From positions 1 through 64,000 of the forward strand of contig JBDRKL010000009.1 in the NCBI GenBank assembly GCA_043814055.1: a stretch of 64,000 nucleotides of DNA, read 5' to 3'. The translations under genes were made by a program, and so were the position numbers. How positions within the stretch are numbered: position 1 is the first letter of the stretch; every line of letters starts with the position of its first letter. Of the stretch, positions 9,654 through 45,814 are shown piece after piece. The notes under the pieces are model-generated. The model made no database searches and was not told where the DNA came from. It saw nothing but the letters and a program-made list of their open reading frames with translations. Origin of the DNA: an archaeon (GTDB lineage: Archaea; Undinarchaeota; Undinarchaeia; Undinarchaeales; JBDRKL01).

Positions 9654-10189
9654 GCCCAGAAAAAGTTGAGGAAAAAAAAGTAGAAGCTGCAAAGCCTGAA
9701 GCGAAAAAGGCAGAGGCTTCTCCAAAGGAGAACGCCACTGCTCAGCCTCCACGAGCAGGCGGGTTTCAAAAGCACGAGTATGCACCAAGGTATGAAAGGC
9801 CAAAGGACAGCAAGAGAGCAGTCGCTCACATATATTCATCCTTTAATAACACCATAATAAACATAACTGACATAACCGGGGCAGAGACCATTGCAAATTA
9901 CTCCGGCGGGATGGTAGTCCGAAGCGGCCGAGAGAAACCATCGCCAATAGCGGCGATGCAGGTTGCGAACCAGGCTGCAGAAGAGGCAAAAGGCAAGGGG
10001 TTCTATGAAATTGACGTAAAGATTCGCGCACCAGGCGGAACTGACGCAAGGTCACACGGCCCAGGCGCTCAGGCAGCCATCAGAGCGTTTACAAGAGCGG
10101 GAATGAAAATTGGAAAGATAGAGGATGTAACCCCACTGCCGCACGGCAACATGAGAAAACCAGGCGGAAGGCGGGGCAGGAGGGTATAA
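9650..10189 (+). CDS. rps11: 30S ribosomal protein uS11 with N-terminal extension
   Basis: [38 protein letters not shown]. Confidence 0.97.
9713..9763 (+). repeat. Family A double-hairpin element, in frame within uS11
   Basis: GGCTTCTCCAAAGGAGAACGCC-ACTGCTCAG-CCTCCACGAGCAGGCGGG encodes [17 protein letters not shown]. Confidence 0.8.
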
Positions 10190-10953
10190 TGAAAATTCGC
10201 ATTCTTAACAAAAGCAACTCAAAACTCAGATTTGTACTGGAAGATTCTGATGTTGGCTTCGCAAACGCGCTGAGGCGCACAATGCTCTCGGAGCTTCCAA
10301 CGCTCGCAATAGAGGATGTTACTTTCTTTGAGAACACTTCCGCACTCTACAATGAGCTCGTTGCGCACAGGCTCGGCTTGATACCACTCACAACAGACCT
10401 CAAGACGTTCAAGCTTCCAGGGAGTTGCGGCTGCAAGGGCAAGGGTTGCCCGAAATGCCAGCTCATCTTCACTCTCGTTAGGAAAGGCCCAGGGATGGTT
10501 TATTCTGGTGACCTAAAGTCAAGCGACCCCAAGATAAAAGTCGCTGACGACAAGATACCAATCGTAAAGCTTCTTGAGCACCAGAACATCAAGCTTGAGG
10601 CAACAGCCATACTAGGCCAGGGCAAGACACACGCCAAGTGGCAGCCGGGAATTATTGCTTATCAATATTACCCAAATATTGACGTGAAAAAGCAGACGTG
10701 CATAAAGAGCGCGAAAGAAGTCTGCCCAAAAGATGTATTTGATGACAAGGGCGTTGCAGCGCTTGAGAAGTGCGACCTGTGCAGGGAGTGCGTTGACGTG
10801 TGCGGTAAGGATGCAATTGAAGTTACTGGCATTAACACCAAGTTCCTATTTAACATTGAGACCAACGGCAGCCACAAGCCGGAGAGCATTGTAATTGAGA
10901 GCGCAAAGTATCTTGGCGAAAAGGCGAAAGAGTTTGAGAAAGAGTTGAAGTAA
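10189..10953 (+). CDS. rpoD: DNA-directed RNA polymerase subunit D (Rpo3) with Fe-S domain
   Basis: ANALRR, AHRLGLIPL, HAKWQP, CDLCRECVDVC. Confidence 0.97.
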   Translation: MKIRILNKSNSKLRFVLEDSDVGFANALRRTMLSELPTLAIEDVTFFENTSALYNELVAHRLGLIPLTTDLKTFKLPGSCGCKGKGCPKCQLIFTLVRKGPGMVYSGDLKSSDPKIKVADDKIPIVKLLEHQNIKLEATAILGQGKTHAKWQPGIIAYQYYPNIDVKKQTCIKSAKEVCPKDVFDDKGVAALEKCDLCRECVDVCGKDAIEVTGINTKFLFNIETNGSHKPESIVIESAKYLGEKAKEFEKELK

Positions 10954-11295
10954 CTACTTCCTGCTCTCTTCAATCGCTTCTTCTATTTGTTTCTGCATAA
11001 CCAGCTTGGGCAGGTATACTATTCCGAGAACGCAAAAGAATGTTATTAAGAGAGCGACGAAAACCTGGTAAGACACGCCACTGCCGGAGATTCCTGCGCT
11101 GATTAGGAAAGAGTCAAAGAGTGAACGGATAGTGTCAACCCAAGTCAAAGCTATGACAAAGCCGAACGCGGTTGTGATTGCGTTTATCGCAGTATGCTCA
11201 AGCTGCTCAATGCTACGCTGAGCCTTCTTGACCGGCTCCTTGTCCTTCATATGGCTCAGGTGCGCGAGCTTTTCAAATTCCTCTATTGATGGCAT
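10954..11295 (-). CDS. Small 2-TM membrane protein (DUF5654-like)
   Basis: ITTAFGFVIALTWVDTI resembles the DUF5654 AFGxVAALAWxxAI motif. Confidence 0.65.
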   Translation of the reverse strand: MPSIEEFEKLAHLSHMKDKEPVKKAQRSIEQLEHTAINAITTAFGFVIALTWVDTIRSLFDSFLISAGISGSGVSYQVFVALLITFFCVLGIVYLPKLVMQKQIEEAIEESRK

Positions 11296-11345
11296 ACACA
11301 GGAATAGGGGCAGGGTATTAAAAAGGGTTTGGGAAAGAGAAATAA

Positions 11346-11386
11346 TGCAGGAGAAGGGATTTAGGAACCTCCGCCTGCTTGCGGAG
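11346..11386 (-). repeat. Family A hairpin 2 followed by a degenerate duplicate of the tRNA-Leu 3' end
   Basis: Minus strand CTCCGCAAGCAGGCGGAG, then GTTCCTAAATCCCTTCTCCTGCA versus tRNA GTTCAAATCCCTTCTCCCGCA. Confidence 0.8.
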
Positions 11387-11400
11387 AATAAGCTACGAGC

Positions 11401-11453
11401 GAAGCGAGTTTTTGATCAAACTTTTTGGACAAATTTCATAAATAAAAAGTTTG
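11401..11453 (-). repeat. Family B element at the tRNA-Leu 3' end
   Basis: Minus strand CAAACTTTTTATT..AAAAAGTTTGATCAAAAACTCGCTTC, closely matching 51767-51820. Confidence 0.8.
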
Positions 11454-11539
11454 GTGCGGGAGAAGGGATTTGAACCCTCGTATCCACTAAGGAACTAGGC
11501 CCTCAACCTAGCACGTTTTCCAGGCTCCGCCACCCCCGC
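11452..11539 (-). tRNA. tRNA-Leu(GAG)
   Basis: Cloverleaf with anticodon arm CTAGG-TTGAGGG-CCTAG, long variable arm, GTTCAAATC T-loop, encoded CCA. Confidence 0.95.
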
Positions 11540-11678
11540 AATTTTCGTCGTACATTTGTCTGCTAGGTAAAGTAGCATAAGTATAATTAAAGTGGTTAAA
11601 AAGGTTATCTATTAACACACTCCCCTTTATATACTATAACAACCATCAATTATGAAAACTAAACAAGGAGGTGAAAAA

Positions 11679-12008
11679 TTGAACATATATATTGGAAACA
11701 TTTCCTGGGATACTACCGACAGCGGCCTGAAGGCAGCTTTCGAAGCATTCGGGCAAGTTGAATCCGCGACCATCATAAAGGATCGCGCAACTGGAAGGTC
11801 AAAGGGATTCGCTTTTGTTGAAATGCCAAACGATGAAGAGGCTAAGGCAGCCATCACAGGCATGACCGGCAAGGAACTTGACGGACGAGAACTCAGAGTG
11901 AATGAAGCAAAGCCACGCGACGACGCGCCGGCACGAAGCTCATCTACAGCATCTTCAGAAGATGAAGAGCCGGTTTATGAGAACACACCAGAAGACGATT
12001 CCGCTTAA
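11679..12008 (+). CDS. RRM-domain RNA-binding protein (bacterial Rbp type)
   Basis: RNP2 IYIGNI and RNP1 SKGFAFVEM; GGAGGTGA SD before the TTG at 11679. Confidence 0.92.
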   Translation: MNIYIGNISWDTTDSGLKAAFEAFGQVESATIIKDRATGRSKGFAFVEMPNDEEAKAAITGMTGKELDGRELRVNEAKPRDDAPARSSSTASSEDEEPVYENTPEDDSA

Positions 12009-12168
12009 GGTTGATTCTATTTGTAAGTTGATTTAGATTTACAGATTTTGTCTTGATTAGCGTGAGCCACAAATTTATTTTTGTGTTTTTTATACCATAG
12101 CGTGAGCTTTAGGGGAAAACTTATTAAAGGAGTAGACAGAAAGGGACGGTCTAAAAGAGGTATTTCAA

Positions 12169-12492
12169 ATGAAAATAAATGAACTACAAGACAAAACAGC
12201 TGTTGACGAAATAACGCTTAAGATTACTGCGAAGGACGAACCACGCGCAGTGAGAGGCGGAACTTTGCAGGTATGCAACTGCACTGGCGAAGACGACACC
12301 GGAACCATTACGATTACGTTGTGGAACGACGACATTTTCGGGGTCAAGGTAGGCGACACCATAAAGATTACAAAGGGTTGGGCCGCGGTCTATCAGGACA
12401 ATATGCAGATTTCATCCGGCAAGTTCGGCAAGATTGAGGTTCTCGGCAAGGACGGCGAAGCTGCTCCTGCTGAAGACGCTGCTGAGGCTTAA
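12169..12492 (+). CDS. Single OB-fold ssDNA-binding protein (SSB/RPA-like), paralog 1
   Basis: EDDTGTITITLWND..GDTIKITKGW..GKFGKI with acidic tail. Confidence 0.88.
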   Translation: MKINELQDKTAVDEITLKITAKDEPRAVRGGTLQVCNCTGEDDTGTITITLWNDDIFGVKVGDTIKITKGWAAVYQDNMQISSGKFGKIEVLGKDGEAAPAEDAAEA

Positions 12493-12495
12493 TAT

Positions 12496-13452
12496 TTAGA
12501 ACAACAGAATTTGCACTGCGTTGAACATATAGCCAGTCAAGATTATAGCAGCCGCAACCACGCCAAAGAAGATTGCGATTAATTTTAGTTTCATTACCCT
12601 GCGCAGTATGACTGCCTCAGGCAGGCTTAATGCAGAGGTGGCCATCATGAACGCGAGCGCTGTGCCAAGTGGAACTCCTTTTCTGAACAGCACAACAGCA
12701 ATCGGCACTATTGCCGCGCAGCTGCCATACATCGGAACGCCGAGCGCGGTTGCAATTGGCACTGCTCCGAGGCCTGCCTTGCTCACAACTGCCTGGATGA
12801 TTTCCGCAGGTATGTAATTGTGAATCCACGCGCCTATTCCAACACCAACCAGAATCCAGAGCCACAGCTTTTTTAGTATTGATTTTGCCTCGCTGAAGCC
12901 GAAAAGCGCCCGCGCCTTGAGATTTTTGAACTGCATTTCTTTTGGAGCTTTATTAACATTGAAATCTTTGGATAGGTATTTCTCAAGCCCAAGCCTGCCG
13001 AGGATATTGCCTGCGATTGTACCTATTAGTATTCCGCTGATTACGTAAAGCGCGGTGATTTTCCAGCCGAAGAACGCGAGCATCAGCACGACAAGGTACT
13101 CGTTGACTATAGGTGATGTGATTAGGAAAGAGAATGCAACACCTAGAGGCACTCTTGCCTCAATGAAGCCTATGAAGAGAGGAATTGATGAGCAGGAGCA
13201 GAATGGAGTTACTGCGCCGAATGTGGACGCGAGCAGGTTGCCGGAGCCAAACCGCCTGTTAGTCACCCACTGCTTTATCTTGCCAGGGGGCAGGTAAGAC
13301 CTGAAAAATCCTATTAGGAAAATCATCACGAACAAGAGCGCAATGATTTTTATTGAGTCATAGATAAAAAAGTTCAGCGACTGAGCTGCCCTGGATGCAG
13401 GATCCAGATTCACAAGGCTGTACAATATCCAATCAACAATTGATTGCAGCAT
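12496..13452 (-). CDS. ArsP/DUF318-family permease
   Basis: TPFCSCSSIP motif, ALSLPE, multiple TM helices. Confidence 0.88.
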   Translation of the reverse strand: MLQSIVDWILYSLVNLDPASRAAQSLNFFIYDSIKIIALLFVMIFLIGFFRSYLPPGKIKQWVTNRRFGSGNLLASTFGAVTPFCSCSSIPLFIGFIEARVPLGVAFSFLITSPIVNEYLVVLMLAFFGWKITALYVISGILIGTIAGNILGRLGLEKYLSKDFNVNKAPKEMQFKNLKARALFGFSEAKSILKKLWLWILVGVGIGAWIHNYIPAEIIQAVVSKAGLGAVPIATALGVPMYGSCAAIVPIAVVLFRKGVPLGTALAFMMATSALSLPEAVILRRVMKLKLIAIFFGVVAAAIILTGYMFNAVQILLF

Positions 13453-13456
13453 TTAG

Positions 13457-13552
13457 CTATCCGCAGCAGGAGCAAGGCTTTTTCTTTGATTTCGCTTCAA
13501 GCTTCTTGTCCAGCTTCTCAGCTGCTCGCTTTAGGAATCCTTTCTTTTTCAT
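13457..13552 (-). CDS. 31-aa basic peptide ending in CSCCG (not in the ORF track)
   Basis: MKKKGFLKRAAEKLDKKLEAKSKKKPCSCCG; start overlaps the upstream stop and it ends 4 nt before the permease start. Confidence 0.65.
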   Translation of the reverse strand: MKKKGFLKRAAEKLDKKLEAKSKKKPCSCCG

Positions 13553-13902: not shown

Positions 13903-13945
13903 TAAGAACTTGCCGTATTTAAGGTTTTCAAACGCCGCTCACAAC

Positions 13946-14571: not shown

Positions 14572-14693
14572 TTTAGTATAAATATATACCAATAAAGTAT
14601 ATACTTATATATAAAGCTTCCCTTGGCCGCTCGCAGAATAATAAGCGGATTAAGAGTTTATAAATTTAATTTAACTCGCGCGAGTTTGGTGAG

Positions 14694-16069: not shown

Positions 16070-16132
16070 GATACAGAATAAACTCACTTGAGTTAATAAA
16101 GGTTTATAAAAGGTGTAATCTCCAGCCATGGC

Positions 16133-24927: not shown

Positions 24928-25311
24928 ATGGATGAAATCGTTCACTACATGCAGAAACTCGGATTGAACCTTTACCAGAGCAGGGCAATGGTTGTTCTGC
25001 TCGCAACAGGCGAGGCAGAAGCGAAGCAGATATGCGAGTGCTCAGGAGTTCCGTACACCAAGATATACCAAATATTGAAACAGCTGGAAGACAAAGGACT
25101 GATTGAGTATAAACTCAACAGCCCGAGGACTTACAAGCCGCGCGGGAGAAAAGCCGTGCTGAACAAGCTCGTGAGAAAAGAGGCAAGGCGCGTGACATAT
25201 TTGGAGAATGAAAAAGAGCGCCAACTTCAAAAGATAGGAAGGCTTAAGCTTGGGGCAACAAAAGGAATTGAGCAAGTACACCCAGTGTTTAATTCAGAAC
25301 CAGGATTCTAG
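24928..25311 (+). CDS. TrmB-family HTH regulator (N-terminal domain only)
   Basis: LGLNLYQSRA..SGVPYTKIYQILKQLEDKGLI..PRTY. Confidence 0.85.
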   Translation: MDEIVHYMQKLGLNLYQSRAMVVLLATGEAEAKQICECSGVPYTKIYQILKQLEDKGLIEYKLNSPRTYKPRGRKAVLNKLVRKEARRVTYLENEKERQLQKIGRLKLGATKGIEQVHPVFNSEPGF

Positions 25312-26807
25312 AAAACCTTGCTCAGGAACCACTCAGCATCAAATGACTTCATGTCCGCGTAGCCCTGCCCAGTGCCGAAGTAGAGGATTGGAGCGTCTGT
25401 AACGTATGAGACCGAAATGCACGAGCCGCCCTTTGGGTCGCAGTCAACCTTTGTTAAGACCGAGCCGTCTATTCCGACTGCCTCGTGGAATGCCTTTGCC
25501 TGGTCTGCTGCGTCGTTTCCTGTGAGAGCGTCGCCAACGAAGATTTTGAGGTCAGGCTTGTTAACGCGCACGACCTTCTTGAGCTCGTCCATTAGGTTTA
25601 TGTTGGTTCCTGAGCGGCCTGCGGTGTCTGCGAGAACGACGTCAATCTTTCTTGCCTTTGCGTGCGCTATCGCGTCGTAAATCACAGCTGCTGAGTCAGA
25701 GCCGCGCACCTGCTTGATGATTGGAACATTAAGGTTCTTTGCGTGAACGTCTAGCTGCTCAATTGCCGCGGCGCGGAACGTGTCCCCTGCCGCCATAACA
25801 ACTGAAAGCCCAGCGTCCTGGAGCATTTTCGCGAACTTGCCTATGGTCATTGTCTTGCCAGTGCCGTTGAAGCCGAAAAAGACAATCACATAGGGTTTGT
25901 CCTTCTTGGCCTTGATGAGCTTGATTATGTCCGGCTGCTCCTTGGTGAGTATTTTTTGCAGCGAGTCCTTGATTGCAGATTCAATCATTTGCTCAGGGCT
26001 CTTGCTTGAGGTCTCCTCTTCCATCAGGCGCGCCTTGGTTTCGGCGGTTATTGCCTCTGTGACTTCTTTTGCAATGTCGTTCTCAAGCAGGAGTAGTTCA
26101 AGCTCCCAGAGTATTTTATCAAGATTTTTCTCTGAGATTTTTTTGCGGGTGATGGAAAGAAAACGCTTTTTTGGCTTTTCAGGTTCTTTATCAGGCTCTT
26201 TTGGCTTCCTGAATCTTCCGAAGAAACCTTTCTTTTTTGGTTCTCCGCCTGCTCGCGGAGGTAGAGCGGAGGCATTCGCCCCTGGCGAAGCCTCTATCTT
26301 GGTTTCTTCTTTTACTTCGGGTTCAATTTCAGGTTCTGGAGTTGGTTCCTCTTCAACAATTGGTTCTGGCTCGGGTTCTTCTTCAGATTCCTCCTCTACC
26401 TCTGGTTCAGGCTCATCCTCAATTTCAGGTTCAGGCTTGGACTCCGACTCGGATTCAGGTTCAGCAACTGGCTCTAGCTCTTCAGGTTTTTCAGGTTCTG
26501 GCTCAAGCTCGACCTTAACTTCAGGCTTGGGTTCTTCAACCACCAGCTCAAGTTCCGGCTCAACCTGCCCCGGCTCAAGCTCGGCTTCAACCTCTTTTAG
26601 AATTTCGTCTTCAACCGCAGCCGCCTTTTTCTTTTCTTTCTTCGACTTCGTTTCCTTCTTCTTGGCTATTGGCGGTTGGCTCTTGGCTTTTGGCGCTTTA
26701 GGAACTTCCTCAACAACTTCGTCTACTGGCTCCTTTACCTCAACCTCAACTTCAGCTGAGGCCTTGGACAAAAAGCCCTTGAGCTTCTTCTTGAGATTTT
26801 CAAACAT
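25308..26807 (-). CDS. ftsY: SRP receptor FtsY with long acidic N-terminal region
   Basis: GFNGTGKT, DTFRAAAIEQL, DTAGR, TKVD, GTGQGY. Confidence 0.97.
   Translation of the reverse strand: MFENLKKKLKGFLSKASAEVEVEVKEPVDEVVEEVPKAPKAKSQPPIAKKKETKSKKEKKKAAAVEDEILKEVEAELEPGQVEPELELVVEEPKPEVKVELEPEPEKPEELEPVAEPESESESKPEPEIEDEPEPEVEEESEEEPEPEPIVEEEPTPEPEIEPEVKEETKIEASPGANASALPPRAGGEPKKKGFFGRFRKPKEPDKEPEKPKKRFLSITRKKISEKNLDKILWELELLLLENDIAKEVTEAITAETKARLMEEETSSKSPEQMIESAIKDSLQKILTKEQPDIIKLIKAKKDKPYVIVFFGFNGTGKTMTIGKFAKMLQDAGLSVVMAAGDTFRAAAIEQLDVHAKNLNVPIIKQVRGSDSAAVIYDAIAHAKARKIDVVLADTAGRSGTNINLMDELKKVVRVNKPDLKIFVGDALTGNDAADQAKAFHEAVGIDGSVLTKVDCDPKGGSCISVSYVTDAPILYFGTGQGYADMKSFDAEWFLSKVF
26243..26294 (-). 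repeat. Family A element, in frame within FtsY
   Basis: GGCTTCGCCAGGGGCGAATGCC-TCCGCTCTA-CCTCCGCGAGCAGGCGGAG encodes EASPGANASALPPRAGG. Confidence 0.85.
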
Positions 26808-26837: not shown

Positions 26838-27260
26838 CTATTTCTTCTTCGCCTGCATCGTCTGTAGGTATGCCTGAAGCTCCGGCTCAAGCGCGCCAAG
26901 GCGCTCGCCCATCTTCTTTATCTGCCCCTCAAGCTTTGCCCTGCCGTCTGTAAGTGTCTCCAGCTGCGTTCCGATTGACTCCACAGCGTCGCTGACCTTT
27001 TTCTCAACCACAACACCAGCGCCGACGCCAGTTAAAACATAGCCCTTGTCCTTGAGGTCTGCCATAACAAATGAGTTGCCGCCAAGCGGCACCATAATCT
27101 CAGAGTCCTTTGCGCCCTTCAGGCTCTCTATGGTGTTCTTCGCAGCCAGAAGCTCCATCTCGACTCCGCCCATCGCGTTTAGTTCCTGAATAAGACTTTC
27201 GATTTGGGTTTTTAAAATAGTGTATTCAGCGTACTTTTGTTGGAATTCTTCTTCCTTCAT
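26838..27260 (-). CDS. pfdA: Prefoldin alpha subunit
   Basis: EIMVPLGGNSFV..VGAGVVVEK; position before ftsY. Confidence 0.92.
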   Translation of the reverse strand: MKEEEFQQKYAEYTILKTQIESLIQELNAMGGVEMELLAAKNTIESLKGAKDSEIMVPLGGNSFVMADLKDKGYVLTGVGAGVVVEKKVSDAVESIGTQLETLTDGRAKLEGQIKKMGERLGALEPELQAYLQTMQAKKK

Positions 27261-27619
27261 TCTCCGGCTGCTCCCGGAGGGTGAGCGGAGGCATTCGCAT
27301 CCGGCGAAGCCGCTTTATTATCTCCTTTTTCCTTAGGCGCACCTTCGTGCGCTGCTTCTTTTTCCCTGACTGAGGTGCCTTCTGCTTTTAACATCCCTTT
27401 CTTTGCCTTTGCCGGCAGAACTTTCTTTGCTTCTGGCTTGAACTCCTCAACTTTCTCAATCTTTATTTGAGCTCGCTTTATCCCGTGATTTGAGCCAACC
27501 AATGAATAGACCTTGTCAAGCGCGCGTGCTTCTTTAAGTTCGGTAACTTCCTTGGTAAAAATCTGCTTATTTCCACGCTGTACAAAACTTCCTATGATTC
27601 TAAAATGTTTAACACTCAT
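27257..27619 (-). CDS. rpl18a: 50S ribosomal protein eL20 (LX/L18Ae) with C-terminal extension
   Basis: FTKEV..ALDKVYSLVGSNHGIKRAQIKI. Confidence 0.9.
   Translation of the reverse strand: MSVKHFRIIGSFVQRGNKQIFTKEVTELKEARALDKVYSLVGSNHGIKRAQIKIEKVEEFKPEAKKVLPAKAKKGMLKAEGTSVREKEAAHEGAPKEKGDNKAASPDANASAHPPGAAGE
27262..27311 (-). repeat. Family A element forming the eL20 C-terminus
   Basis: GGCTTCGCCGGATGCGAATGCC-TCCGCTCAC-CCTCCGGGAGCAGCCGGAG encodes ASPDANASAHPPGAAG. Confidence 0.85.
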
Positions 27620-27696
27620 TTTGAATTTTCCTCCACTTCATCAGCTTTAAAATAAACACGAAGCTGATTGACCTGCGTTATTGCTTTGCGTCTCAT
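27616..27696 (-). repeat. Family C element / 26-aa bridging mini-ORF between eL31 and eL20
   Basis: ATGAGACGCAAAGCA..CAGCTTCGTGTTTATTTTAAAGCTG..GGAGG..AAATGA; TGA overlaps the eL20 ATG. Confidence 0.8.
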
Positions 27697-27701
27697 TATA
27701 T

Positions 27702-28241
27702 TTACCTGAGCTTGATCACTGCTCTGCCGTTTTCATCTTCGCCAATCACAACTCGAAGCTGATATGGCGGTTTCTTGCGGCCGCGCTCCCAGATTTTCTC
27801 GTTTACTTCCTTTGTGATTACGACTTTGTCCGCCTTGGTGTGCTTCTTTGCGAACGCCTTGAGCATAGAAATTGTGTATCGCGCTTTCTTGCCCCTTACT
27901 GCGTTATTCCTAAGCGGGATTGTGTAAAGGTGGTCAGTGCCCTTGAGCCTGGTTGGCTTGACATTCTTCGGCGCAGCCTTGGATTCCTTGAGCTCGCTGA
28001 TGGTGTCCATTGCGCGCTCCACAACCGTGCCCTTCTTCTTTGGCTGCGGCTTTGCCTTTGCCTCTTTCTTATCCTTGACTGCTGGCTCTTCCTTTGAGGC
28101 AGCCTTTGGCTTAGCCTTCTCTTCTTCTGCCGCTGCAGACTGACGCTTCGCGTCAGTTGCACGCTTGACTTCGTCAAGCTGTGCCTCTGCCTGAGCTTCT
28201 TTCAGAATTTCATCTTCTACACTTGCTTTATCTTTAGCCAT
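27702..28241 (-). CDS. rpl31e: 50S ribosomal protein eL31 with a long K/A/E-rich N-terminal extension
   Basis: YTIPLR..VNEKIWERGRKKPP. Confidence 0.9.
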   Translation of the reverse strand: MAKDKASVEDEILKEAQAEAQLDEVKRATDAKRQSAAAEEEKAKPKAASKEEPAVKDKKEAKAKPQPKKKGTVVERAMDTISELKESKAAPKNVKPTRLKGTDHLYTIPLRNNAVRGKKARYTISMLKAFAKKHTKADKVVITKEVNEKIWERGRKKPPYQLRVVIGEDENGRAVIKLR

Positions 28242-36691: not shown

Positions 36692-38014
36692 TTATCCACG
36701 CAGCTCTTTCATATGGTCAATGCGCTTCTGCACCAGCTCTGGCTTGCCAATGTCAGGCCTGTAGAACAATTTGTCGCACTGCACGGATGAGATTGCAGAC
36801 TCTGCGATTTTCTCAGCTTCTTCAATCGTGTCTGCGAAGCCTGTGATTCCAAATGAGCGCGATGTGCTTGTGTAAAGCTCGCCATCTTTCAGGTCAACTG
36901 AGGCGTAGTAGAGCTTTGCGCCGAGCCGCGTGATTTCTTCCTCGTCAATTGAGACCTTTGCGCCTGACTCAGGGCTCTCAGGGTAGCCTGTTGGGACAAG
37001 GTACTTGCAGACCGAGGCAAGATTTTCAAACTCAATAACTTTTGGCAAACTACCCTCAAGCATTGACTGGCACAGGAAGCTGAAATCGGTCTTGAGTAAT
37101 GGGAGAATGTTCATCGCTTCCGGGTCGCCGAAGCGCACGTTGTATTCAATAATTTTTGGTCCGTCCTTTGTGAGCATAAACTGCCCGTAGAGAACGCCCT
37201 TGTAAATTGTTCCGGTTCTTTTCTTCAGCGCAGCGATTGTGCGCTTCATAATGTCAAGCGCTTCGTCAACATCTTTCTGCTCAAGAAAAGGCAATAGGTG
37301 ATTTGCGTCAGAGTATGAGCCCATTCCGCCTGTCATCGGTCCTGTGTCGCCCTCGTGCGCCTGCTTGTGGTCCTGCACAAGTGGAAGCGGAACAACTTCT
37401 GTGCCGTCTGTGAAAACATGGAGCGTGAACTCCTCCCCAACGAGTTTTTCCTCAATTACCACAACGCCTGAGCCGCCAATTTGGTTCTCAACAACCTCAA
37501 GCGCGTAGTCCCGCGCCTCATACAAGTCCCTGAGCTGCTGACCCATGACCTTGACGCCCTTGCCGCCGGTGAGCCCTGCGGGCTTGATGACTATTTCTGT
37601 GTCAAATTCCTGAATCGCTTTGAGAACATCCTCGCGGTTGGAGCACACGCGGAACTTGGGGTAGCCGCCGTCAAGATGCTCCTGCATCAGGTCGCGGCAG
37701 AACGCCTTGTCAGACTCAAGCCGGGCTGCAGCGCTTGTCGGACCAACCACGCCAAAGCCGTTCTTCTGCAATTCATCCCCAACGCCTTTAGCAAGCGGGT
37801 CCTCAGGGCCGATGAAAATGTAGTCAGGCTTCACGTGGAGCGCGTATTTCAAAACTGCTTTTGAATTATTAATGTCGCCGAGTTCGTGACCTTTTGCAAG
37901 CGCCATTATGCCAGGGTTGCGGGCCTTCATAAACGCGTAGAGCTCTGAGCCCTTTGCCATCTGCTCAGCAAGCGCGTGTTCACGCGCTCCGTTGCCTATT
38001 AGGAGGGATTTCAA
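36692..38014 (-). CDS. purD: GAR synthetase
   Basis: GNGAREHA, GPE, GGKGV, TGGMG, EYNVRFGDPE. Confidence 0.96.
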   Translation of the reverse strand: MKSLLIGNGAREHALAEQMAKGSELYAFMKARNPGIMALAKGHELGDINNSKAVLKYALHVKPDYIFIGPEDPLAKGVGDELQKNGFGVVGPTSAAARLESDKAFCRDLMQEHLDGGYPKFRVCSNREDVLKAIQEFDTEIVIKPAGLTGGKGVKVMGQQLRDLYEARDYALEVVENQIGGSGVVVIEEKLVGEEFTLHVFTDGTEVVPLPLVQDHKQAHEGDTGPMTGGMGSYSDANHLLPFLEQKDVDEALDIMKRTIAALKKRTGTIYKGVLYGQFMLTKDGPKIIEYNVRFGDPEAMNILPLLKTDFSFLCQSMLEGSLPKVIEFENLASVCKYLVPTGYPESPESGAKVSIDEEEITRLGAKLYYASVDLKDGELYTSTSRSFGITGFADTIEEAEKIAESAISSVQCDKLFYRPDIGKPELVQKRIDHMKELRG

Positions 38015-38085
38015 AGCTTCACCGCCCTTAACAGCTTTGAAATAAACGCGAAGCTGTATAACAAATTTCTTGCTTTGCGTTTCAC
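38011..38085 (-). repeat. Family C element / 24-aa bridging mini-ORF between purF and purD
   Basis: GTGAAACGCAAAGCA..CAGCTTCGCGTTTATTTCAAAGCT..AGCTTTGA; TGA overlaps the purD TTG. Confidence 0.8.
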
Positions 38086-39532: not shown

Positions 39533-39577
39533 GCCATTTCTCCGTGTTGTATTTTGATTCGTGGGTTATATATGTTG

Positions 39578-40354: not shown

Positions 40355-40355
40355 T

Positions 40356-43301
40356 TTAGAATCCTCCAAACGTGCTTTGCCACGCCCCCTTGAGCTCTGC
40401 AATGCTCTTATTGATTAGTTCGTTTCCGCCCTGAGTTATTTTGAGAATTGGTTCTTTTGTTACAACCCCAACCTCTGCAAATGGAATACCTTCCATTAGT
40501 TTTTCAAACTCTGCTTTTTTCTCTGGGTTGATTGTAACCACAAACCTGCCCGGGCTTTCTGAGTATAAAATCCGGGTTTCGTCATCCATATCAGCTGGGA
40601 CTTTTGCCAGGTCAATTTCCAAGCCAAGCCCGCCGCCGAACGCAACCTCTGCGAGCGAAACCGCTAAGCCGCCGAGGTAAACTCCGTGACAAGATTGAAT
40701 CAAGCTGTTTGAAATTGCAGATGAAACCGCTTTGTAAGTGTCAAGCGCGATTTCCTTGTCAAGTGTTGGAACATTTTTCCCAACTTTGTTGTGCATTTCG
40801 TAAAACTCAGAAGCTCCTAATTCATCTCGTGTTCCGCCAATCACATAAACCAAATCACCTTGGCTTTTCGCGTCCATTGAAACGCACTTCTCAACATCCT
40901 CAACTTTCGCAATTGCAGTGAAGTGGAGAGCAGGAAGCCCTGAGACTTTGTGCATCTTGCCTTTTGAGTCTTCAATGTTGCCGTCCACGAACATGCTGTC
41001 TTTTCCAGAAATACACGGCGTGTTGAAATGAGTTGTGTAATCGTAGAGCGCTTTGTTCGCACGGACTAGCTGGGCAAGCTTGTGCTTGCCGTCAGGGTTA
41101 TGCTTTTTGTCATAGATTGAGTTCGGCCAACAGAAGTTGTCGTTGAGCGCGATTTGCTCAAGTGAGCCTCCGACTGCAATTACGCGGCGGATTGCTTCAT
41201 CCAAAACGCACGCAGTCATGTGATAAGCGTCAATTTTTGAATACCGCGGGTTTATGGCAGACGCAGTTGCAAGCCCTTCGTTTGAATCCAGCAGAGGTTT
41301 CACAACTGCTGCATCTCCGCGCGCATCGTTCTCCGCGCCGATGAACATCTTCAGGGCGCTGCCTGCTTGAACTTCGTGGTCGTATTGCCGCTGGATGAAC
41401 TCCTTGCTCGCGATGTTCTCGCGGGCAAGCATCTTGAGAAGTGTTTCGTTGTGATCTTTTACTTTAATTTTTGGCTCAGCCTCAGATTTTGGATTGAACT
41501 CTGCCTCAAGCTCCAGTCTTGGAAAGCCGGAGTGCAGGAACTCCATATCAAGATACGCTGCTGTTTTGCCATCGTAGAGCAGGTGCAGTTTGCCAGTGCT
41601 CTTATACTCGCCAACAACAGCCATTTCAACATCATGCACTTTTGCAAGTGCCTCAAGCTCCCTGAGTTTGCCTGGCTTTGTTGCGATTATCATTCTTTCC
41701 TGTGATTCTGAAATCCAAATTTCCCACGGCGCTAAGCCGGCATATTTTGACTTGACTTTATCCAAGTGCACTTCGCACCCGTTTGAGTAGCGCGCGGTTT
41801 CTCCAATCGCTGAAGACAAACCCCCACCGCCGCAGTCGGTTATGCAGTTGTACATTCCTTTGTCCCTTGCTTCAAGCAAAAAGTCGTGCACTTTCTTCTG
41901 CGTGTAAGGGTCTCCAATTTGCACGTGGCCTGCGGTTATTTTCTCACTCAGCTCAAGCGAGGATTCTGTAACTCCGTGTATGCCGTCCTTCCCAACTCTG
42001 CCGCCGAGAATTATTATCAAGTCGCCGTTGTCTATGCTTTTCTCGTGCGCTGGAGCTCCGTTCACTTCTTTTGGCATCATCCCGAGCGCAGTAACATAAA
42101 CAAGCGGTTTTCCAATGTAAGAGTTATCAAAGAATGTCAAGCCGAAAGAAGTTGGAATTCCAGAGTTGTTACCGCCGTCTTTCACGCCTTCAATTATTCC
42201 TTCCAGCAGTCTGCGCGGTGGCATCTTCGGTTTTAAATCTCCAGTGTAAAAAGGGCTTCCTGTGCAGTAGCCGTACATTCCTGCGATGATTTTTGAGCCA
42301 AGTCCTGTGCCCATTGGATCCCTGTAAACTCCAACTATTCCAGTGAGCGCGCCGCCGTAGGGGTCCATTGCCGAAGGGCTGTTGTGCGTCTCGCACTTCA
42401 CAACATAGTTCCAAGCGTCATTGAATTTTGCCACACCTGCGTTGTCCCAGAACATTGAAACAATCCAAGGCACTTTTTTCCTGATTTCCTCTGCGGATTT
42501 TTTTATGTAAGTGTCAAACAGGCTGTCAATCTGCCAGCCCTCATAGTTTATCAAGCCGTTGAAAATTCTGTGCTTGCAGTGCTCGCTCTGGGTCTGCCCA
42601 ATCATTTCAAGCTCTACATCTGTTGGTTTCTCGCTGAGTCCTGCTTTTTTTCTCGCTTCCTGCACCTCGGGTTTTTCGTAATATGATTTTACCACGTGCA
42701 TGTCCGCCAAGCTTAAAGCAAGCGACCTGGACTCGCTGAGTTTTAAAAGCTCCTTGTCATTGCCAAGCTCAAGCTCTTTCACTTCTGGCTCGTGCTTGAG
42801 CTCAACTTTAGGGATTTTGAATTCCGGCTTGAACTCAGATTTTGAAAAAATGCTCCACCGCTCAATCATGTCGTTTCCGAGCAGCTCGCCAGCGATTTGC
42901 TCAGCCTGCTTTTTCGTGATTTTGCCCTTGAGCAGGTACTGCGCCGCGGTGTAAACGTGCTCCCCGCCCTTGAGCTTGAATTTCAGAACATCTTCAATCG
43001 CTCTTGCAGCCACGTCGCCTGTGTTGTCCTTCACACCCGGCAGATAGCCAACTTCAACAATGTAGTCCAAATCCTCTGCGAGCGAGTCGTAAGAGGAGGT
43101 TTGCGTGATTTGGTCTGTGAAAACTTCATTCTTAACTTTCTCAAGCTGCTCATCGCTCAGCACAGCATCAATCAAAAACAAGTCAATCTTCTGCACTGAG
43201 TCCAGCGCGATGCCAAAATAGTCCCTGACGCGCTTTTTGACATAGTCTCCCTTAGAGTCCGTGAACTCCGGCTTGAACATTACAGATAAGCGGTGCGCCA
43301 T
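40356..43301 (-). CDS. purL: FGAM synthase PurL with PurS-like N-terminal region
   Basis: SEHCKH, ETHNSPS, ISESQER, QYDHEVQ, YSESPGR; about 980 aa. Confidence 0.95.
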   Translation of the reverse strand: MAHRLSVMFKPEFTDSKGDYVKKRVRDYFGIALDSVQKIDLFLIDAVLSDEQLEKVKNEVFTDQITQTSSYDSLAEDLDYIVEVGYLPGVKDNTGDVAARAIEDVLKFKLKGGEHVYTAAQYLLKGKITKKQAEQIAGELLGNDMIERWSIFSKSEFKPEFKIPKVELKHEPEVKELELGNDKELLKLSESRSLALSLADMHVVKSYYEKPEVQEARKKAGLSEKPTDVELEMIGQTQSEHCKHRIFNGLINYEGWQIDSLFDTYIKKSAEEIRKKVPWIVSMFWDNAGVAKFNDAWNYVVKCETHNSPSAMDPYGGALTGIVGVYRDPMGTGLGSKIIAGMYGYCTGSPFYTGDLKPKMPPRRLLEGIIEGVKDGGNNSGIPTSFGLTFFDNSYIGKPLVYVTALGMMPKEVNGAPAHEKSIDNGDLIIILGGRVGKDGIHGVTESSLELSEKITAGHVQIGDPYTQKKVHDFLLEARDKGMYNCITDCGGGGLSSAIGETARYSNGCEVHLDKVKSKYAGLAPWEIWISESQERMIIATKPGKLRELEALAKVHDVEMAVVGEYKSTGKLHLLYDGKTAAYLDMEFLHSGFPRLELEAEFNPKSEAEPKIKVKDHNETLLKMLARENIASKEFIQRQYDHEVQAGSALKMFIGAENDARGDAAVVKPLLDSNEGLATASAINPRYSKIDAYHMTACVLDEAIRRVIAVGGSLEQIALNDNFCWPNSIYDKKHNPDGKHKLAQLVRANKALYDYTTHFNTPCISGKDSMFVDGNIEDSKGKMHKVSGLPALHFTAIAKVEDVEKCVSMDAKSQGDLVYVIGGTRDELGASEFYEMHNKVGKNVPTLDKEIALDTYKAVSSAISNSLIQSCHGVYLGGLAVSLAEVAFGGGLGLEIDLAKVPADMDDETRILYSESPGRFVVTINPEKKAEFEKLMEGIPFAEVGVVTKEPILKITQGGNELINKSIAELKGAWQSTFGGF

Positions 43302-43363
43302 TCTAAAGCTTATTAGGCGCGGCAATATATAAAAACTTTGAGGATGAAAAGAATAAATTAATT

Positions 43364-44119
43364 ATGAACGAACACAGTAAAAAATTCTGTGCATTTGAGC
43401 ATGAAAGGTATGGGCATATTTTTAACGGGTACTGCATGCGGCCGAACTCGCCAGCAACAAAACTAAGAGCTGATATAGGCGAGATTAGGGTTGTGGGAAC
43501 TGACTTTAAAGTACTACAGGAATTTCTGCTGAAACATGGAACCCGCTATTACCCTAAGGGTCTGCTGGGGAATGACTGGATTGGGGACATTAACATTTTA
43601 TGGTTTTACGAAGCTGTGAATGCTGAAAGCGGCTACAGGAAAGAGCTGGATAGAAAGGTAATAAGCGCGCTTGGGGATGAAAGAAAAACACTGGCTGAGA
43701 TAAGCAAGGAATTGGAACTGCAGACGAGAGCTACATGGGATTGCATGCGCGAAGCTTTAAGAATAAATATCATAGTAAAAGAGCACGATACAATAAAAGG
43801 GACTGTCTACAGAGTTAATTATGAATTCTTAAAGGCAGTGCTGGAGTATCACAATAGCCATGCTGAGCGCTTTGTTAAAATCATGGAAGCAGCCCTGAAA
43901 GATGACATGGAAAAAAGAAAGATTGGAAGTTTGCAGGGCTTGGCAATAAAATCCAATATTATAAGAGATAAATATGAAAACGCAGAGAGAATCACAATGC
44001 ACGTCAAGACCAATACGAGGAAGCATAAAAGGAAATTAGAGCTAAAGATTGCATTTTTTGCAAACCCGATACTGGTAAATCTGGATGAGGGGGGAATACC
44101 CTTGGAAAAATTGGAATAA
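43364..44119 (+). CDS. Hypothetical protein with possible winged helix
   Basis: KTLAEISKEL..GTVYRVN; AT-richer than flanking genes. Confidence 0.55.
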   Translation: MNEHSKKFCAFEHERYGHIFNGYCMRPNSPATKLRADIGEIRVVGTDFKVLQEFLLKHGTRYYPKGLLGNDWIGDINILWFYEAVNAESGYRKELDRKVISALGDERKTLAEISKELELQTRATWDCMREALRINIIVKEHDTIKGTVYRVNYEFLKAVLEYHNSHAERFVKIMEAALKDDMEKRKIGSLQGLAIKSNIIRDKYENAERITMHVKTNTRKHKRKLELKIAFFANPILVNLDEGGIPLEKLE

Positions 44120-45718
44120 TCAACCCAAACACGCTTTAATGAAACTCTTAAACAGCGGCGCCGGCTTCTCAACCCTAGACTTGAACTCCGGGTGGAACTG
44201 CGACGCGATGAAGAACGGATGCTCTTTCTTTGGCAGTTCAAGTATCTCCATTATTTCACCATCCGGCGACCTGCCTGAGAATACCAATCCTGCTTTCTCC
44301 AGAGTCTTGACATACTTTGGATTGAACTCATACCGGTGCCTGTGCCTCTCGTCAATCCTGTCCTTGTTGTAAATTGAATGCGCGAGTGTTCCTTTCTTCA
44401 GCCTGCACGGCCACGTGCCCAATCTCATTGTCGCGCCCATATCAATTCCCTTGTATTGCGTGGGCAGGATGAATATGACCGGGTGCTTTGTTTTTGGATC
44501 AACTTCAGTGCTGTTCGCTCCTTTCAACCCAGCGGCATCTCTTGCAAACCCCACACTCGCCAATTGGAACCCATAGCACAACCCGAGGAATGGAATCTTG
44601 TTCTTCCTTGCGTAGTTAATCGCTGCGATTTTGCCCTCTACCCCGCGACCGCCGAACCCGCCAGGCACAATTAAACCGTCAATATCATCAAGAACCTTAA
44701 GCTTTTTTGGGTCATTCTCAAAGTCAGTCATCTCAAGCCATTTTATCTCAACCTTGCAGTTGTTCGCGCCTGCCGCGTGCTTGAGCGACTCGGTTATGCT
44801 CACATAAGAATCGTTAAGCGCGGTGTATTTGCCTGCCATTGCGATTTTCACAGTTTTCTTCGCGTTGTTCATATCCTGCACGACTTTCTTCCAGCTCTTG
44901 AAATCATTCTTTCGTTTCTTCAAACCCAGCTTCTTCAGGATTTTTTCCCCGATTCGTTCTTCCTGCAGGACAAGCGGGACCTCATACAGGTTTGAAACAT
45001 CCGGGTCTGAGATTATGTATTTCTCGTCAACATTGCAGAACAGGGAAATTTTCTCCTTGGTCTTCTTTAACAGCTTGTTCGGCGAGCGCGCCAGTATGAA
45101 ATCCGGCTGTACCCCGGCTTCCTGCAGTCTTTGAATTGAGTGCTGTGTCGGCTTGGTCTTCTGCTCCCCGACAACTGAAATCTCCGGCACAAGCGTTACG
45201 TGGAGAAACAGGACATTCTCAGGCCCTGCCTCCCTGTGCAACTGCCTCGCTGCCTCCAGAAATGGCATGCTCTCTATGTCCCCGACTGTTCCGCCAATTT
45301 CAACTATCACAAAATCCGTGCCTTTTGAAACTGCTTTTATCTGATTCTTGATTTCGTCTATGACGTGCGGGATAATTTGAACGGTTTTTCCAAGGTAGTC
45401 GCCCTTGCGCTCCTTGTCAATAACGGCCTTGTAAACCTTGCCGGTCGTTATGTTATTTTTCCGCTCCAGATTCAAGTTTAAGAACCGCTCGTAATTGCCA
45501 AGGTCCATGTCCACTTCGCCGCCATCGTCCAAAACGAAGACCTCGCCGTGCTCAAATGGATTCATTGTGCCGGCGTCAACATTCAAGTAGGGGTCAACCT
45601 TGACCATATTAACCTTAAAACCGTAGCACTGCAGAATCTTGCCAATAGAAGAAGATACGATGCCCTTGCCTAATCCTGAAAGAACTCCACCTGTTGTGAT
45701 TATGTACTTGGTTTGCAT
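44120..45718 (-). CDS. pyrG: CTP synthase
   Basis: [38 protein letters not shown]. Confidence 0.98.
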
Positions 45719-45764
45719 AATTATTGATGGTCGAGGTTATATAAAAGGATTTCTTTGAGATAGG

Positions 45765-45814
45765 GGCTTCGCCGAAGGTGAATGCCCCAGCTTTACCTCC
45801 GCAAGCAGGCGGAG
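45765..45814 (+). repeat. Family A element, free intergenic copy
   Basis: GGCTTCGCCGAAGGTGAATGCC-CCAGCTTTA-CCTCCGCAAGCAGGCGGAG. Confidence 0.85.

Follow-up and report, generated by a model that had tools for sequence, protein, structure and literature searches.

Rickettsia palindromic elements (RPEs) measure about 150 bp, form ten families and account for 44 insertions in genes of R. conorii, according to the review PMC10969869. Like RPEs, the archaeal element described here is a short palindromic repeat in a reduced genome that occurs both between genes and in frame within unrelated housekeeping genes, where its copies add a peptide segment (in the archaeon to four genes, outside Pfam domains). 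It differs in its archaeal host, in its size (~55-72 nt versus about 150), in its strong preference, with a fixed polarity, for places where tRNA or other stable-RNA genes end, and in that only 4 of ~40 copies are coding. Its pseudoknot and long, variable target duplications are not mentioned for RPEs in the accessible part of PMC10969869. We regard the likeness to RPEs as an analogy only.

Other small repeats resemble the element in different respects. REP/BIME repeats share with it an imperfect, strand-specific hairpin that has a bulged base, covarying stems, a conserved tetranucleotide (GTAG in E. coli REPs, ATAG here) immediately 5' of the hairpin foot, mosaic combination with other small modules and a location mostly downstream of genes. 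In contrast to REP-RAYT systems, no Y1 transposase was found in the four carrier genomes and copies are single or in direct tandem rather than in inverted pairs; unlike REPs, copies also lie inside genes, and the pseudoknot and target duplications are without a REP counterpart. MITEs, too, are small multicopy sequences that are non-coding, presumably move in trans and have target duplications on either side, whereas the archaeal element is without terminal inverted repeats, its duplications are not of fixed length, and neither a parent insertion sequence nor a DDE transposase was found in the carrier genomes. With SINE-type retroposons and template-switch insertions it has in common variable target duplications, a sharp 3' junction, dependence on a folded strand, a variable 5' side, fillers, and truncated and chimeric copies. 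In contrast to the SINE type, the four genomes yielded no reverse transcriptase, the element has no A-rich tail, and its duplications reach untranscribed or leader sequence. We know of no prokaryotic element of this kind, and our literature search turned up none. The element also calls to mind the double-hairpin elements of Allomyces mitochondria and the GC clusters of yeast mitochondria, tiny two-hairpin repeats of a small genome that have no obvious enzyme and invade intergenic DNA, introns and reading frames. Their hosts are organellar rather than archaeal, and we know of no description of a pseudoknot or a long target duplication in them.

We analysed a window of 64,000 nucleotides (the whole stretch of DNA under study) in which the original prediction had described four occurrences of a palindromic element. 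All four are real and lie within 1-4 nt of where they had been placed; three further members (the last three rows of Table 1) bring the window to seven. A genome-wide scan, proposed at the time as a check, uncovered a family of ~40 copies in the 0.98-Mb genome (G000). Three rounds of nhmmer returned 29 matches at E<1e-3, and a pseudoknot model (R2) returned 40. Searched against the whole genome with nhmmer, the four earlier copies reach E values of 7e-14 to 1e-15; with a covariance model (R1) they score 56.7-78.5 bits (E 2e-10 to 4e-15), partly by construction because R1 was built from these four and 15 other copies. All four match one another far beyond chance. Besides G000, the only carriers are three genomes of one sister genus (R2 matches: 13 in G010, 9 in G006 and 4 in G002). 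R2 found no match in the other nine genomes of the order or in four further genomes of the phylum, so the element is missing from 13 of 17 phylum genomes, and pattern scans of GTDB and viral sequences gave no true element match. Element sites are mostly not the same in the two carrier lineages. Rfam searches of the window and 11 element loci recovered only tRNAs and SRP RNA; the best other match, at 19 bits, is attributable to chance, and no family approached its gathering threshold for the element.

Table 1. Element copies in the window. R1 scores of the first four copies are partly by construction, as explained in the text.
Copy	Position	Strand	R1 score (bits)	Location
uS11	9711..9764	+	56.7	within gene 9650-10189; residues ~22-38 of the 50-aa N-terminal extension
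FtsY	26243..26296	-	78.5	within gene 25308-26807; residues 172-188, acidic A-domain, directly before GFF motif
eL20	27262..27315	-	68.3	final 17 codons of gene 27257-27619
Intergenic	45761..45814	+	73.2	CTP synthase promoter region (gene 44120-45718, - strand)
tRNA-Leu(gag)	11366..11395	-		pseudoknot-only, without hairpin 1; 56 nt downstream of tRNA (11452-11539, - strand)
tRNA-Ser(gct)	49973..50033	+	24.7 (for 49973-50010)	abuts tRNA 5' end (50035-50123)
tRNA-Val(tac)	50868..50928	+	55.7	23-29 nt downstream of same-strand tRNA (50698-50845)

Read 5' to 3', the unit consists of a leader, a bulged hairpin 1 and an H-type pseudoknot. The leader is short, A/T-rich and ends in ATAG; among type-A copies, most have ATAG or ATTG before hairpin 1, and the bulged pyrimidine is kept. 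Hairpin 1 combines an invariant core (C-UUCG / CGAA-Y-G, the pyrimidine bulged) with outer and distal pairs that covary freely. In the pseudoknot, a 4-bp S1, a 3-nt spacer and a 6-bp S2 (CUCCGC/GCGGAG) are arranged so that the 3' strand of S1 lies inside the S2 loop. The predicted double hairpin is borne out in RNA folds of the four earlier copies, which form two hairpins (-21 to -28 kcal/mol, z -0.95 to -3.8), but a third helix turns the 3' half into a pseudoknot. A perfect 4-bp S1 at fixed spacing accompanies 31 of 37 loci with an S2 hairpin, against 0-3 of 73 in shifted controls. By inspection, the 5' end (..ATAG-GAGGC) shows no complementarity to the 3' end (..GGCGGAG), leaving the unit without terminal inverted repeats.

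Both hairpin 1 and the pseudoknot carry strong compensatory changes. Across 40 pseudoknot modules, 95.9% of cells are paired versus 80.6% in shuffles, and each of the four S1 pairs shows double-sided changes, in 10-16 of 39 rows. Across 56 full or partial copies the values are 96.8% versus 78.8%, with double changes at 12 of 17 pairs, and none of 500 shuffles reached what was observed. The exchanges on which the original prediction had relied (TTCTCC/GGAGAA versus TTCGCC/GGCGAA, and CTCCGG/CCGGAG versus CTCCGC/GCGGAG) are present. U.G wobbles occur on the sense strand, nine of them at one pair in the 56-copy alignment, and are retained even in a copy lying antisense within a tRNA-Arg intron. 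Some sub-families keep the pseudoknot geometry with wholly different sequence (CAGCGG/CCGCTG; AACTT/AAGTT before tRNA-Pro and tRNA-Ser), and other variants include pseudoknot-only copies, nested hairpin insertions and one chimera, the second unit after tRNA-Pro(cgg). Within the window, every helix is intact in the FtsY copy, which is identical at 51 of 54 positions to a copy elsewhere (contig C12, 3741-3799). The eL20 copy has the compensated CTCCGG/CCGGAG pair in S2, and at its 3' end it overlaps a prefoldin gene (26838-27260) at the start codon. The uS11 copy is the most decayed, with S2 broken and 42 of 54 positions as in the best copy. At tRNA-Ser(gct), a variant hairpin 1 (GGTGGC..GCCGCC type) and a pseudoknot read by eye reproduce the same geometry in other sequence. 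With ~40 mostly non-coding copies and covarying stems, the claim of a repeated nucleic-acid element, rather than a protein motif, is supported.

Most copies are intergenic, and 15 of 38 lie ≤200 nt from a tRNA gene, 11 of these 15 downstream on the same strand. With respect to the upstream gene, 28 of 41 copies are co-oriented and 13 face away. Sites include the ends of tRNAs, RNase P RNA, ribosomal protein genes, thermosome, archease and GAPDH, and a copy stands 3' of RNase P RNA in two families (G000 and G010). Neighbouring copies are direct, not inverted, and neighbouring genes are housekeeping genes. Introns interrupt 17 of the genome's 40 tRNA genes, and element-like modules lie inside some of them. 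A flanking direct repeat scores above all 200 shuffles in 25 of 40 copies, a score inflated by array periodicity where repeats belong to tandem arrays; the downstream repeat begins 0-6 nt past S2 in 24 of these 25. The layout is a target segment, a filler of 0-100 nt, the element, 0-6 nt, and the target segment again. Duplicated segments, most often gene ends, comprise tRNA 3' ends, reverse-complemented tRNA 5' ends, gene 5' ends, protein-gene 3' ends with their stop codon and a TATA-like box. Perfect duplications span 9, 13, 13, 14, 14, 14, 15, 17, 20, 25 and 26 nt, and diverged ones reach ~50 nt. Direct repeats of 9 to ~50 nt fit no transposase known to us. In G000 the repeat can be recognised as a gene end in 15 cases, and there the intact gene lies, by our own reading, on the element's 5' side in 15 of 15: the target's terminal 9 to ~50 nt are duplicated, and the gene therefore stays intact on that side.

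In the window, the tRNA 3' end recurs behind two copies: in diverged form and together with the trailer after the tRNA-Val(tac) copy (50929-50970; repeat score 16.5 versus a shuffle maximum of 10), and after the tRNA-Leu(gag) copy at ~11346-11362 (14.5 versus 10.5). The copy at 45761 has the 9-nt repeat ATATAAAAG on both sides (45739-45747 and 45815-45823), with a score of 9 that is above the 95th percentile and below the maximum of shuffles. The remaining 15 of 40 copies, including all three window coding copies, are without a significant repeat. Because the closest relatives are only ~68-73% identical (FtsY), we infer mobility itself from target duplications and ortholog comparison.

The element has four open frames, one of which adds 17 residues rich in Ala, Ser, Pro and Gly. 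Coding copies are four of ~40: uS11, FtsY and eL20 in the window, and a hydrogenase/complex-I large subunit elsewhere. All four keep the reading frame in one common frame, and in the hydrogenase-like gene a nested 45-nt insertion is likewise frame-keeping. The three window copies are sense-oriented and, as originally described, share orientation, frame and translations; FtsY reads IEASPGANASALPPRAGGE and eL20 reads AASPDANASAHPPGAAGE, then stop, while the non-coding copy at 45761 would read ..NAPALPPQAGG. Each lies outside the Pfam domains (uS11 domain 58-175, FtsY NG domain 221-498, eL20 domain 3-58). The suggested ortholog comparison located the peptide in no relative: the motif is found in none of seven FtsY loci (one of which duplicates another), the N-terminal extension in none of 11 uS11 orthologs, and both alignable eL20 orthologs have other tails. 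Since orthologs are without the peptide, the coding copies are insertions and not an ancestral motif. In uS11 there is no in-frame ATG, GTG or TTG between element and conserved core, so that this copy must be translated unless it is cut from the RNA. In these four essential genes, the element is predicted from sequence to be read through as 17 extra amino acids. An example tryptic peptide predicted from a translated copy would span EASPGANASALPPR. The proposed RPE counterpart holds for in-frame copies in unrelated genes, but in-frame insertion is a minority fate, and the pseudoknot and long variable duplications set the element apart; it is associated above all with gene ends of tRNAs and other stable RNAs.

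Searches for a mobilising enzyme were negative in all four carrier genomes, which are 78-82% complete. The RAYT/IS200 partner that the original prediction had envisaged was not found, PF01797 (Y1_Tnp; Y1 HUH, RAYT) having no match in G000, G002, G006 or G010 with control genomes positive. RVT_1, Cas1, Phage_integrase, DDE_Tnp_1, rve and IS110 likewise had no match in any of the four, and TnpB had none in G000, the only genome searched for it. An integron attC site was considered and rejected, given no match to PF00589 (tyrosine recombinase) in the four carriers and neighbours that are housekeeping genes, not cassette arrays.

We think it probable that the element is a selfish, structure-dependent, lineage-specific, non-autonomous repeat that spreads as DNA and relies on the fold of one strand. 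It might instead be a functional cis-acting or small RNA, with a structure that protects 3' ends, directs processing or binds protein at stable-RNA genes and in UTRs of highly expressed mRNAs; copy number would then reflect use rather than selfish spread, and coding copies would be accidents. Such a role would suit the invariant core beside covarying stems, the pseudoknot geometry kept in sub-families of entirely different sequence, the downstream same-strand position of 11 of 15 tRNA-proximal copies, the copy after RNase P RNA in two families, the 28 of 41 co-oriented copies and the finding of no transposase in carrier genomes. We nevertheless consider it unlikely: 13 of the 41 copies point away from their upstream gene, the antisense copy in a tRNA intron still has a sense-strand wobble pair, and the essential FtsY frame contains an intact copy at its middle, where a strong processing or termination signal would not be tolerable. 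Moreover, target duplications, fillers, chimeras and nested insertions mark the scars of insertion and do not characterise a gene family; no Rfam family matches; and the element is missing from 13 of 17 phylum genomes.

Insertion scars could also be left by integrative plasmids or viruses, with duplicated tRNA ends as att sites and the element as the conserved border of integrated elements later shrunk by deletion. What brings this to mind is that the 3' ends of intact tRNA genes recur behind those genes as 18- to 26-nt duplicates; among the cases are tRNA-Ser(cga), where the 20-nt repeat is perfect, and tRNA-Pro, where units follow in succession. The insert is merely 60-150 nt, however, and the sites span at least 10 different tRNAs plus tRNA 5' ends, protein-gene ends and a promoter, with copies inside reading frames too. 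Local sequence is duplicated each time, often past the tRNA into trailer or leader, and at variable lengths that argue against fixed att cores; with no tyrosine recombinase in the four genomes, we judge this origin for the tRNA-linked copies quite improbable. Still less credible is that the coding copies are small introns (bulge-helix-bulge or other), removed from mRNA and adding no peptide. The intron-bearing tRNA genes (17 of 40) and element-like modules in tRNA introns make the idea conceivable, yet a spliced segment would be unconstrained, whereas four of four coding copies, and the nested 45-nt insertion, keep frame without stops. Folded with 30-nt flanks, the three window copies show no two 3-nt bulges with a 4-bp helix between them in their minimum-energy structures, and the element is mostly intergenic. 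Ancestry of ASPxxNAxAxPPxAGG as a protein motif with secondary DNA likeness would explain a similar peptide in the same frame of four proteins, but ortholog comparison rules it out for practical purposes: the motif is missing in all examined orthologs, ~36 other copies are non-coding or in other frames, a copy in G006 encodes part of an HTH protein's tail in another frame, and the nucleotide stems covary.

Returning to the selfish repeat, we read it as RPE-like in behaviour with a different anatomy, its copying route possibly enzyme-free. The likeliest route seems to us to be template switching, or some other process run by host enzymes, that copies the folded sense strand without a dedicated transposase. 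New copies would land chiefly at the ends of highly expressed genes, and insertions within coding sequence would survive only where the frame is kept and the extension is tolerant and disordered. A more specific and speculative proposal is a mobile sequence without a transposase, whose stable fold of hairpin and pseudoknot in single-stranded DNA is a preferred template for a template-switching nascent strand. The switch would occur where a replication fork has stalled at the border of a gene under heavy transcription; the sense strand would be copied from its 3' end, and the nascent strand would then return to the original template behind the stall point. Such stall-and-return copying would yield the target-filler-element-target layout, the fixed polarity and the sharp 3' junction, as well as donor-derived fillers and chimeric and nested copies, and the stems would stay paired through selection for copy-ability. 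If this is true, the element would represent a new class of selfish DNA that spreads through host replication or repair alone and, as a by-product, creates new peptide segments in ribosomal and other essential proteins.

The four copies in the window share ~54 nt by direct reading and alignment. A leader ending in (A/T)AG forms the 5' part and is followed, in the alignment of the four copies, by hairpin 1 (GRGGC-TTCGCC-loop-GGCGAA-T-GCCYC) and a 3' segment (N-GCTC-TAC-CTCCGC-GAGC-AG-GCGGAG). A double hairpin appears in the minimum-energy folds of all four (-21 to -28 kcal/mol), and the compensatory stem pairs quoted in the original prediction are real. A purely structural scan of the source genome, requiring a [C/G]TCCGN stem to pair with its 3' strand across a 6-nt loop, returned 37 loci. 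At 31 of these, the first 4 loop nt have a perfect pairing partner in the 4 nt located 3 nt upstream, compared with 0-3 of 73 when the upstream window was shifted by 1-12 nt. This difference argues that the 3' half is, as judged from sequence, an H-type pseudoknot rather than a simple hairpin, with helix S1 of 4 bp, a spacer of 3, helix S2 of 6 bp and, on the 3' side, 2 nt separating S1 from S2.

Covariation was measured in two alignments. Across 40 pseudoknot modules aligned without gaps, 95.9% of cells pair, versus 80.6% in shuffles and at most 45% with partners slid. S1 carries double-sided changes at all four pairs (10-16 of 39 distinct rows); S2 hardly varies apart from the closing pair, where 7 double changes occur. 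A covariance model of the whole unit recovered 56 full or partial copies from this genome and its relatives, with 96.8% of cells paired versus 78.8%, double changes at 12 of 17 pairs and observed values reached by 0 of 500 shuffles; this alignment, being fitted to the model, leans towards structure, a bias from which the ungapped one is free. It contains an invariant core (C-G, U-A, U-A, C-G) beside a bulged pyrimidine. U.G wobbles are frequent in the sense strand, 9 of them at one pair, which indicates that this is the strand that folds; an antisense variant copy in the tRNA-Arg(cct) intron retains the sense-strand wobble pair. Pseudoknot geometry is kept in a sub-family with S2 = CAGCGG/CCGCTG and, by eye, in other sequences directly before tRNA-Pro(cgg) and tRNA-Ser(gct). 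Hairpin 1 takes at least three forms. No Rfam family matches the element.

The assembly comprises 979,685 bp in 14 contigs at 45-48% G+C, and from this ~1-Mb genome we infer a reduced, DPANN-like organism. A profile built from the four copies recovered them in this assembly (E 7e-14 to 1e-15), and three rounds of nhmmer gave 29 matches at E<1e-3 plus weaker partial ones. The pseudoknot model gave 40 matches here; in a second family, the three genomes of one genus gave 13, 9 and 4, and the phylum's remaining 13 genomes gave none. The source genome is the sole member of its family among the species genomes compared. Copies in the sister genus have the same anatomy with a conserved 18-nt leader, and also adjoin tRNA genes with duplicated tRNA ends, mostly at different tRNAs. 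Exact-pattern scans yielded only low-scoring chance matches at 8 loci in species-representative genomes and 3 in viral contigs (at most 26 bits versus 50-80 bits for true copies); the pattern was so strict that it already failed for the sister genus, which makes the scans poorly informative on distant variants.

Placement is strongly biased towards gene ends. Aragorn found 40 tRNA genes, and 15 of the 38 matches with E<0.05 lie at most 200 nt from one (chance expectation ~1); 11 of the 15 are downstream on the same strand. RNase P RNA is likewise followed by a copy, both here and, separately, in the sister-genus genome G010. Reading the flanks revealed a second copy of the neighbouring gene's end directly after the element. 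We compared the 50 nt after S2 with the 160 nt before the pseudoknot against 200 shuffles. Direct repeats exceeded all shuffles at 25 of 40 copies, some of which lie in tandem arrays that inflate their scores. The remaining 15 fell below the threshold, including the three window coding copies; the intergenic window copy is borderline. Downstream repeats start 0 nt (12 copies), 1-2 nt (4), 5-6 nt (8) or 21 nt (1) after S2, whereas upstream repeats end anywhere from 0 to ~100 nt 5' of hairpin 1. Length is 9-26 nt for perfect repeats and up to ~50 nt for diverged ones.

The duplicated segments are varied. From tRNA genes they take 3' ends, often continuing into the trailer, or 5' ends in reverse complement, continuing into the leader. 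From protein genes they take the final codons with the stop codon (a thermosome gene), a 3' end (an archease gene) or the initial codons with the ribosome-binding site (a GAPDH gene and an Nre gene). At the intergenic window copy, the repeat is the TATA-like ATATAAAAG that precedes the CTP synthase gene. By reading, the intact gene lies 5' of the element in 15 of 15 cases in this genome with an identifiable gene end. Where the gene is on the 3' side (tRNA-Cys, tRNA-Gly, tRNA-Ser(gct), tRNA-Pro(cgg)), the element sits 0-3 nt from the gene boundary and no duplication was detected. Other scars comprise pseudoknot-only copies, copies with small hairpins nested inside and a chimeric unit with hairpin halves from two sub-families. 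Of 41 copies, 28 point the same way as the gene upstream of them and 13 do not. Orientation showed no association with local GC skew (8/11 versus 5/11), which in strongly skewed regions is confounded with gene orientation. At the archease locus, the copy occupies the spacer after the Pfam-identified gene, with a ~52-nt diverged duplicate of its 3' end; the next long ORF on that strand resembles RtcB by eye.

Coordinates of element copies, their contexts and other small repeat modules (window positions unless a contig of the same genome, C4 to C13, or the sister-genus genome G006 is named)
Feature	Location	Strand	Detail
Element copy, uS11	9711-9764	+	Pfam domain, residues 58-175
Element copy, FtsY	26243-26296	-	Pfam NG domain, residues 221-498
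Element copy, eL20	27262-27315	-	Pfam domain, residues 3-58
Element copy, intergenic	45761-45814	+	
Locus of fourth in-frame copy	C4 23502-24911	-	N-terminus of 469-aa Complex1_49kDa / NiFe-hydrogenase large-subunit protein
FtsY copy with flank helix	26213-26326	-	
Archease locus	C4 81793-84207		
ORF after archease	C4 82765-84207		
Copy in HTH-type protein (locus L049)	G006:C3, ~1446-1916 of the locus	-	
Ribosomal-protein extensions	9036-9653		uS4
Ribosomal-protein extensions	27702-28241		
Second repeat family	27617-27665		upstream of eL20
Second repeat family	38008-38079		
Second repeat family	58150-58239		
Second repeat family	C11 9165-9250		
Second repeat family	C12 140878-140958		
Second repeat family	C13 24748-24842		
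Second repeat family	C10 123841-123934		
Stable-RNA module	51767-51820		just after SRP RNA (51493-51764)
Stable-RNA module	C12 3809-3871		after RNase P RNA
Long tRNA intron	C12 117681-117863		tRNA-Arg(cct)
Long tRNA intron	C6 51029-51297		tRNA-Trp
Long tRNA intron	C12 115016-115203		
Further site of the hairpin-plus-pseudoknot variant that lies antisense in the tRNA introns	C10 136342-136385		

Translation confirmed the reading frames originally assigned to the copies in uS11, FtsY and eL20. Pfam identifies all three proteins, with each insert outside the conserved domain. The fourth in-frame copy, in the hydrogenase subunit, uses the same frame and carries, between S2 and the S1 3' strand, a nested insert of 45 nt that consists of two more hairpins and also keeps the frame. 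Of the six frames of the element consensus four are open, and each of the four coding copies uses the frame that reads EASPKANASALPPRAGG; strings rich in Cys, Arg or Leu would come from the other open frames. No in-frame ATG, GTG or TTG lies between the element and the conserved core of uS11, so the insert is translated unless removed from the RNA, and folds of the three window coding copies with their flanks contain no bulge-helix-bulge motif. A tryptic peptide across the FtsY insert would include EASPGANASALPPR. Identity to the best copy (FtsY 51/54, eL20 46/54, uS11 42/54) suggests that the coding insertions differ in age. The coding flanks of the FtsY copy, GAAGAAACC and GGUUUCUUC, pair in a 9-bp helix around it (fold z = -4.2), perhaps by chance, as the region is rich in GAA, or perhaps in connection with the mode of insertion. 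In G006, a small HTH-type protein apparently has a copy, read in another frame (..GERPRSTSASRRR..), as its C-terminal tail.

The original prediction set an inserted element against an ancestrally conserved peptide, and the orthologs speak against the latter, since the insert peptide is absent from them. In uS11, the proteins of 11 relatives in the order begin ~10 residues before the conserved core. The FtsY insert peptide occurs in none of seven relatives' loci, one of which duplicates another, though the acidic domain and the GFF motif after it are present in all. Two alignable eL20 orthologs have tails unrelated to the insert. The pseudoknot model found no copy in 91 FtsY loci (11 from relatives, 80 from metagenomes); the closest metagenome relative, 73% identical and of the same species as G006, is too distant for an empty-site comparison. 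Several ribosomal proteins carry Lys/Glu/Ala/Pro-rich terminal extensions that are missing or different in relatives, and the element inserts fall within such extensions.

The genome also holds other small repeat modules. A second family of ~60-90 nt lies directly before start codons, with an inverted repeat TTTCAAAG..CTTTGAAA around a GGAGG ribosome-binding site and ending in ATG; each copy gives 10-17 self-BLAST matches, and the family may be a shared 5'-UTR regulatory hairpin. Another module, CCA-ACCTTTTT..hairpin..AAAAAGCTTGACCAAAAA-N-TCTCGCT-NNNN-GCTCGT, follows stable-RNA genes, including tRNA-Ile, Leu(taa), Leu(gag), Ser(gga) and Pro(cgg), and also forms the start of long introns in tRNA-Gly(gcc) and tRNA-Met(cat). 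An TTGACCAAAA-like box occurs 25-36 nt upstream of some tRNA genes, and on this basis the module may be a terminator plus promoter. Long tRNA introns (84-193 nt) are made of the same small hairpin modules and include an antisense hairpin-plus-pseudoknot variant found elsewhere in the genome.

More probably than not, in our view, the element is a non-autonomous repeat that is selfish and depends on its structure. Its flanks are unrelated, target sequence is duplicated locally, fillers, chimeras and nested copies occur, sites are lineage-specific, and copies lie in reading frames and antisense positions; these are insertion marks rather than signs of a gene family, and together, with covariation explicable, they lead to this reading. 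Covariation would follow if only well-folded variants were copied. The main rival, a functional RNA module at the ends of stable RNAs and mRNAs, draws on the invariant core, conserved geometry and placement after stable-RNA genes, but is weakened by antisense and intragenic copies, and we judge it unlikely. Narrower RNA roles were rejected: the boxes of a C/D-box or K-turn RNA are absent, with no 3-nt bulge beside tandem G.A pairs; copies are too many, and some within genes, for a riboswitch; and RNase P RNA is present, which removes the case for a ribozyme replacing it. A guide-RNA reading of the downstream repeat was set aside, as repeats include promoters and both gene senses occur, and so was an origin from reverse-transcribed mature tRNA fragments, as repeats run past mature tRNA ends.

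How the element is copied is a separate matter. Variable duplication length, a sharp 3' junction against a loose 5' side and strict polarity fit a transposase poorly; they resemble target-primed or template-switch synthesis. The RAYT/IS200-like HUH transposase originally proposed as a partner found no counterpart: Y1 transposase, reverse transcriptase, Cas1, tyrosine recombinase, DDE_Tnp_1, rve and IS110 transposase were not found in the four carrier genomes, whose 78-82% completeness leaves absence unproven, nor was TnpB in the source genome. Control genomes gave matches in every enzyme search. With no reverse transcriptase found, template switching by a host polymerase is favoured; the polymerase would switch template at forks stalled beside heavily transcribed genes, a route that we offer very tentatively.

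Protein segments are known, though rarely, to be added by small palindromic repeats invading reading frames, a process best documented in Rickettsia. The original analogy with Rickettsia palindromic elements holds for entry into reading frames; on the available part of their description, the element otherwise probably falls outside that class by its defining tests. It also fails those of REP/BIME, MITEs, SINEs, attC sites and archaeal introns, while sharing with REP/BIME a bulged hairpin with a conserved 5' tetranucleotide and mosaic module use. The open-access literature searched describes no archaeal element of this kind. The family has a well-supported pseudoknot, favours the ends of highly expressed genes (tRNA and RNase P RNA genes among them), is associated with long duplications that spare the target and survives in frame within uS11, eL20, FtsY and a hydrogenase subunit, in a ~1-Mb genome where none of the eight transposase, integrase, reverse-transcriptase and Cas1 families searched matched. 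For annotation, gene callers and tRNA finders can go astray at the duplicated gene ends and in-frame segments. For biology, the family offers a tractable case of how repeats spread in streamlined genomes without mobile-element enzymes, and of how low-complexity extensions on archaeal ribosomal proteins originate.
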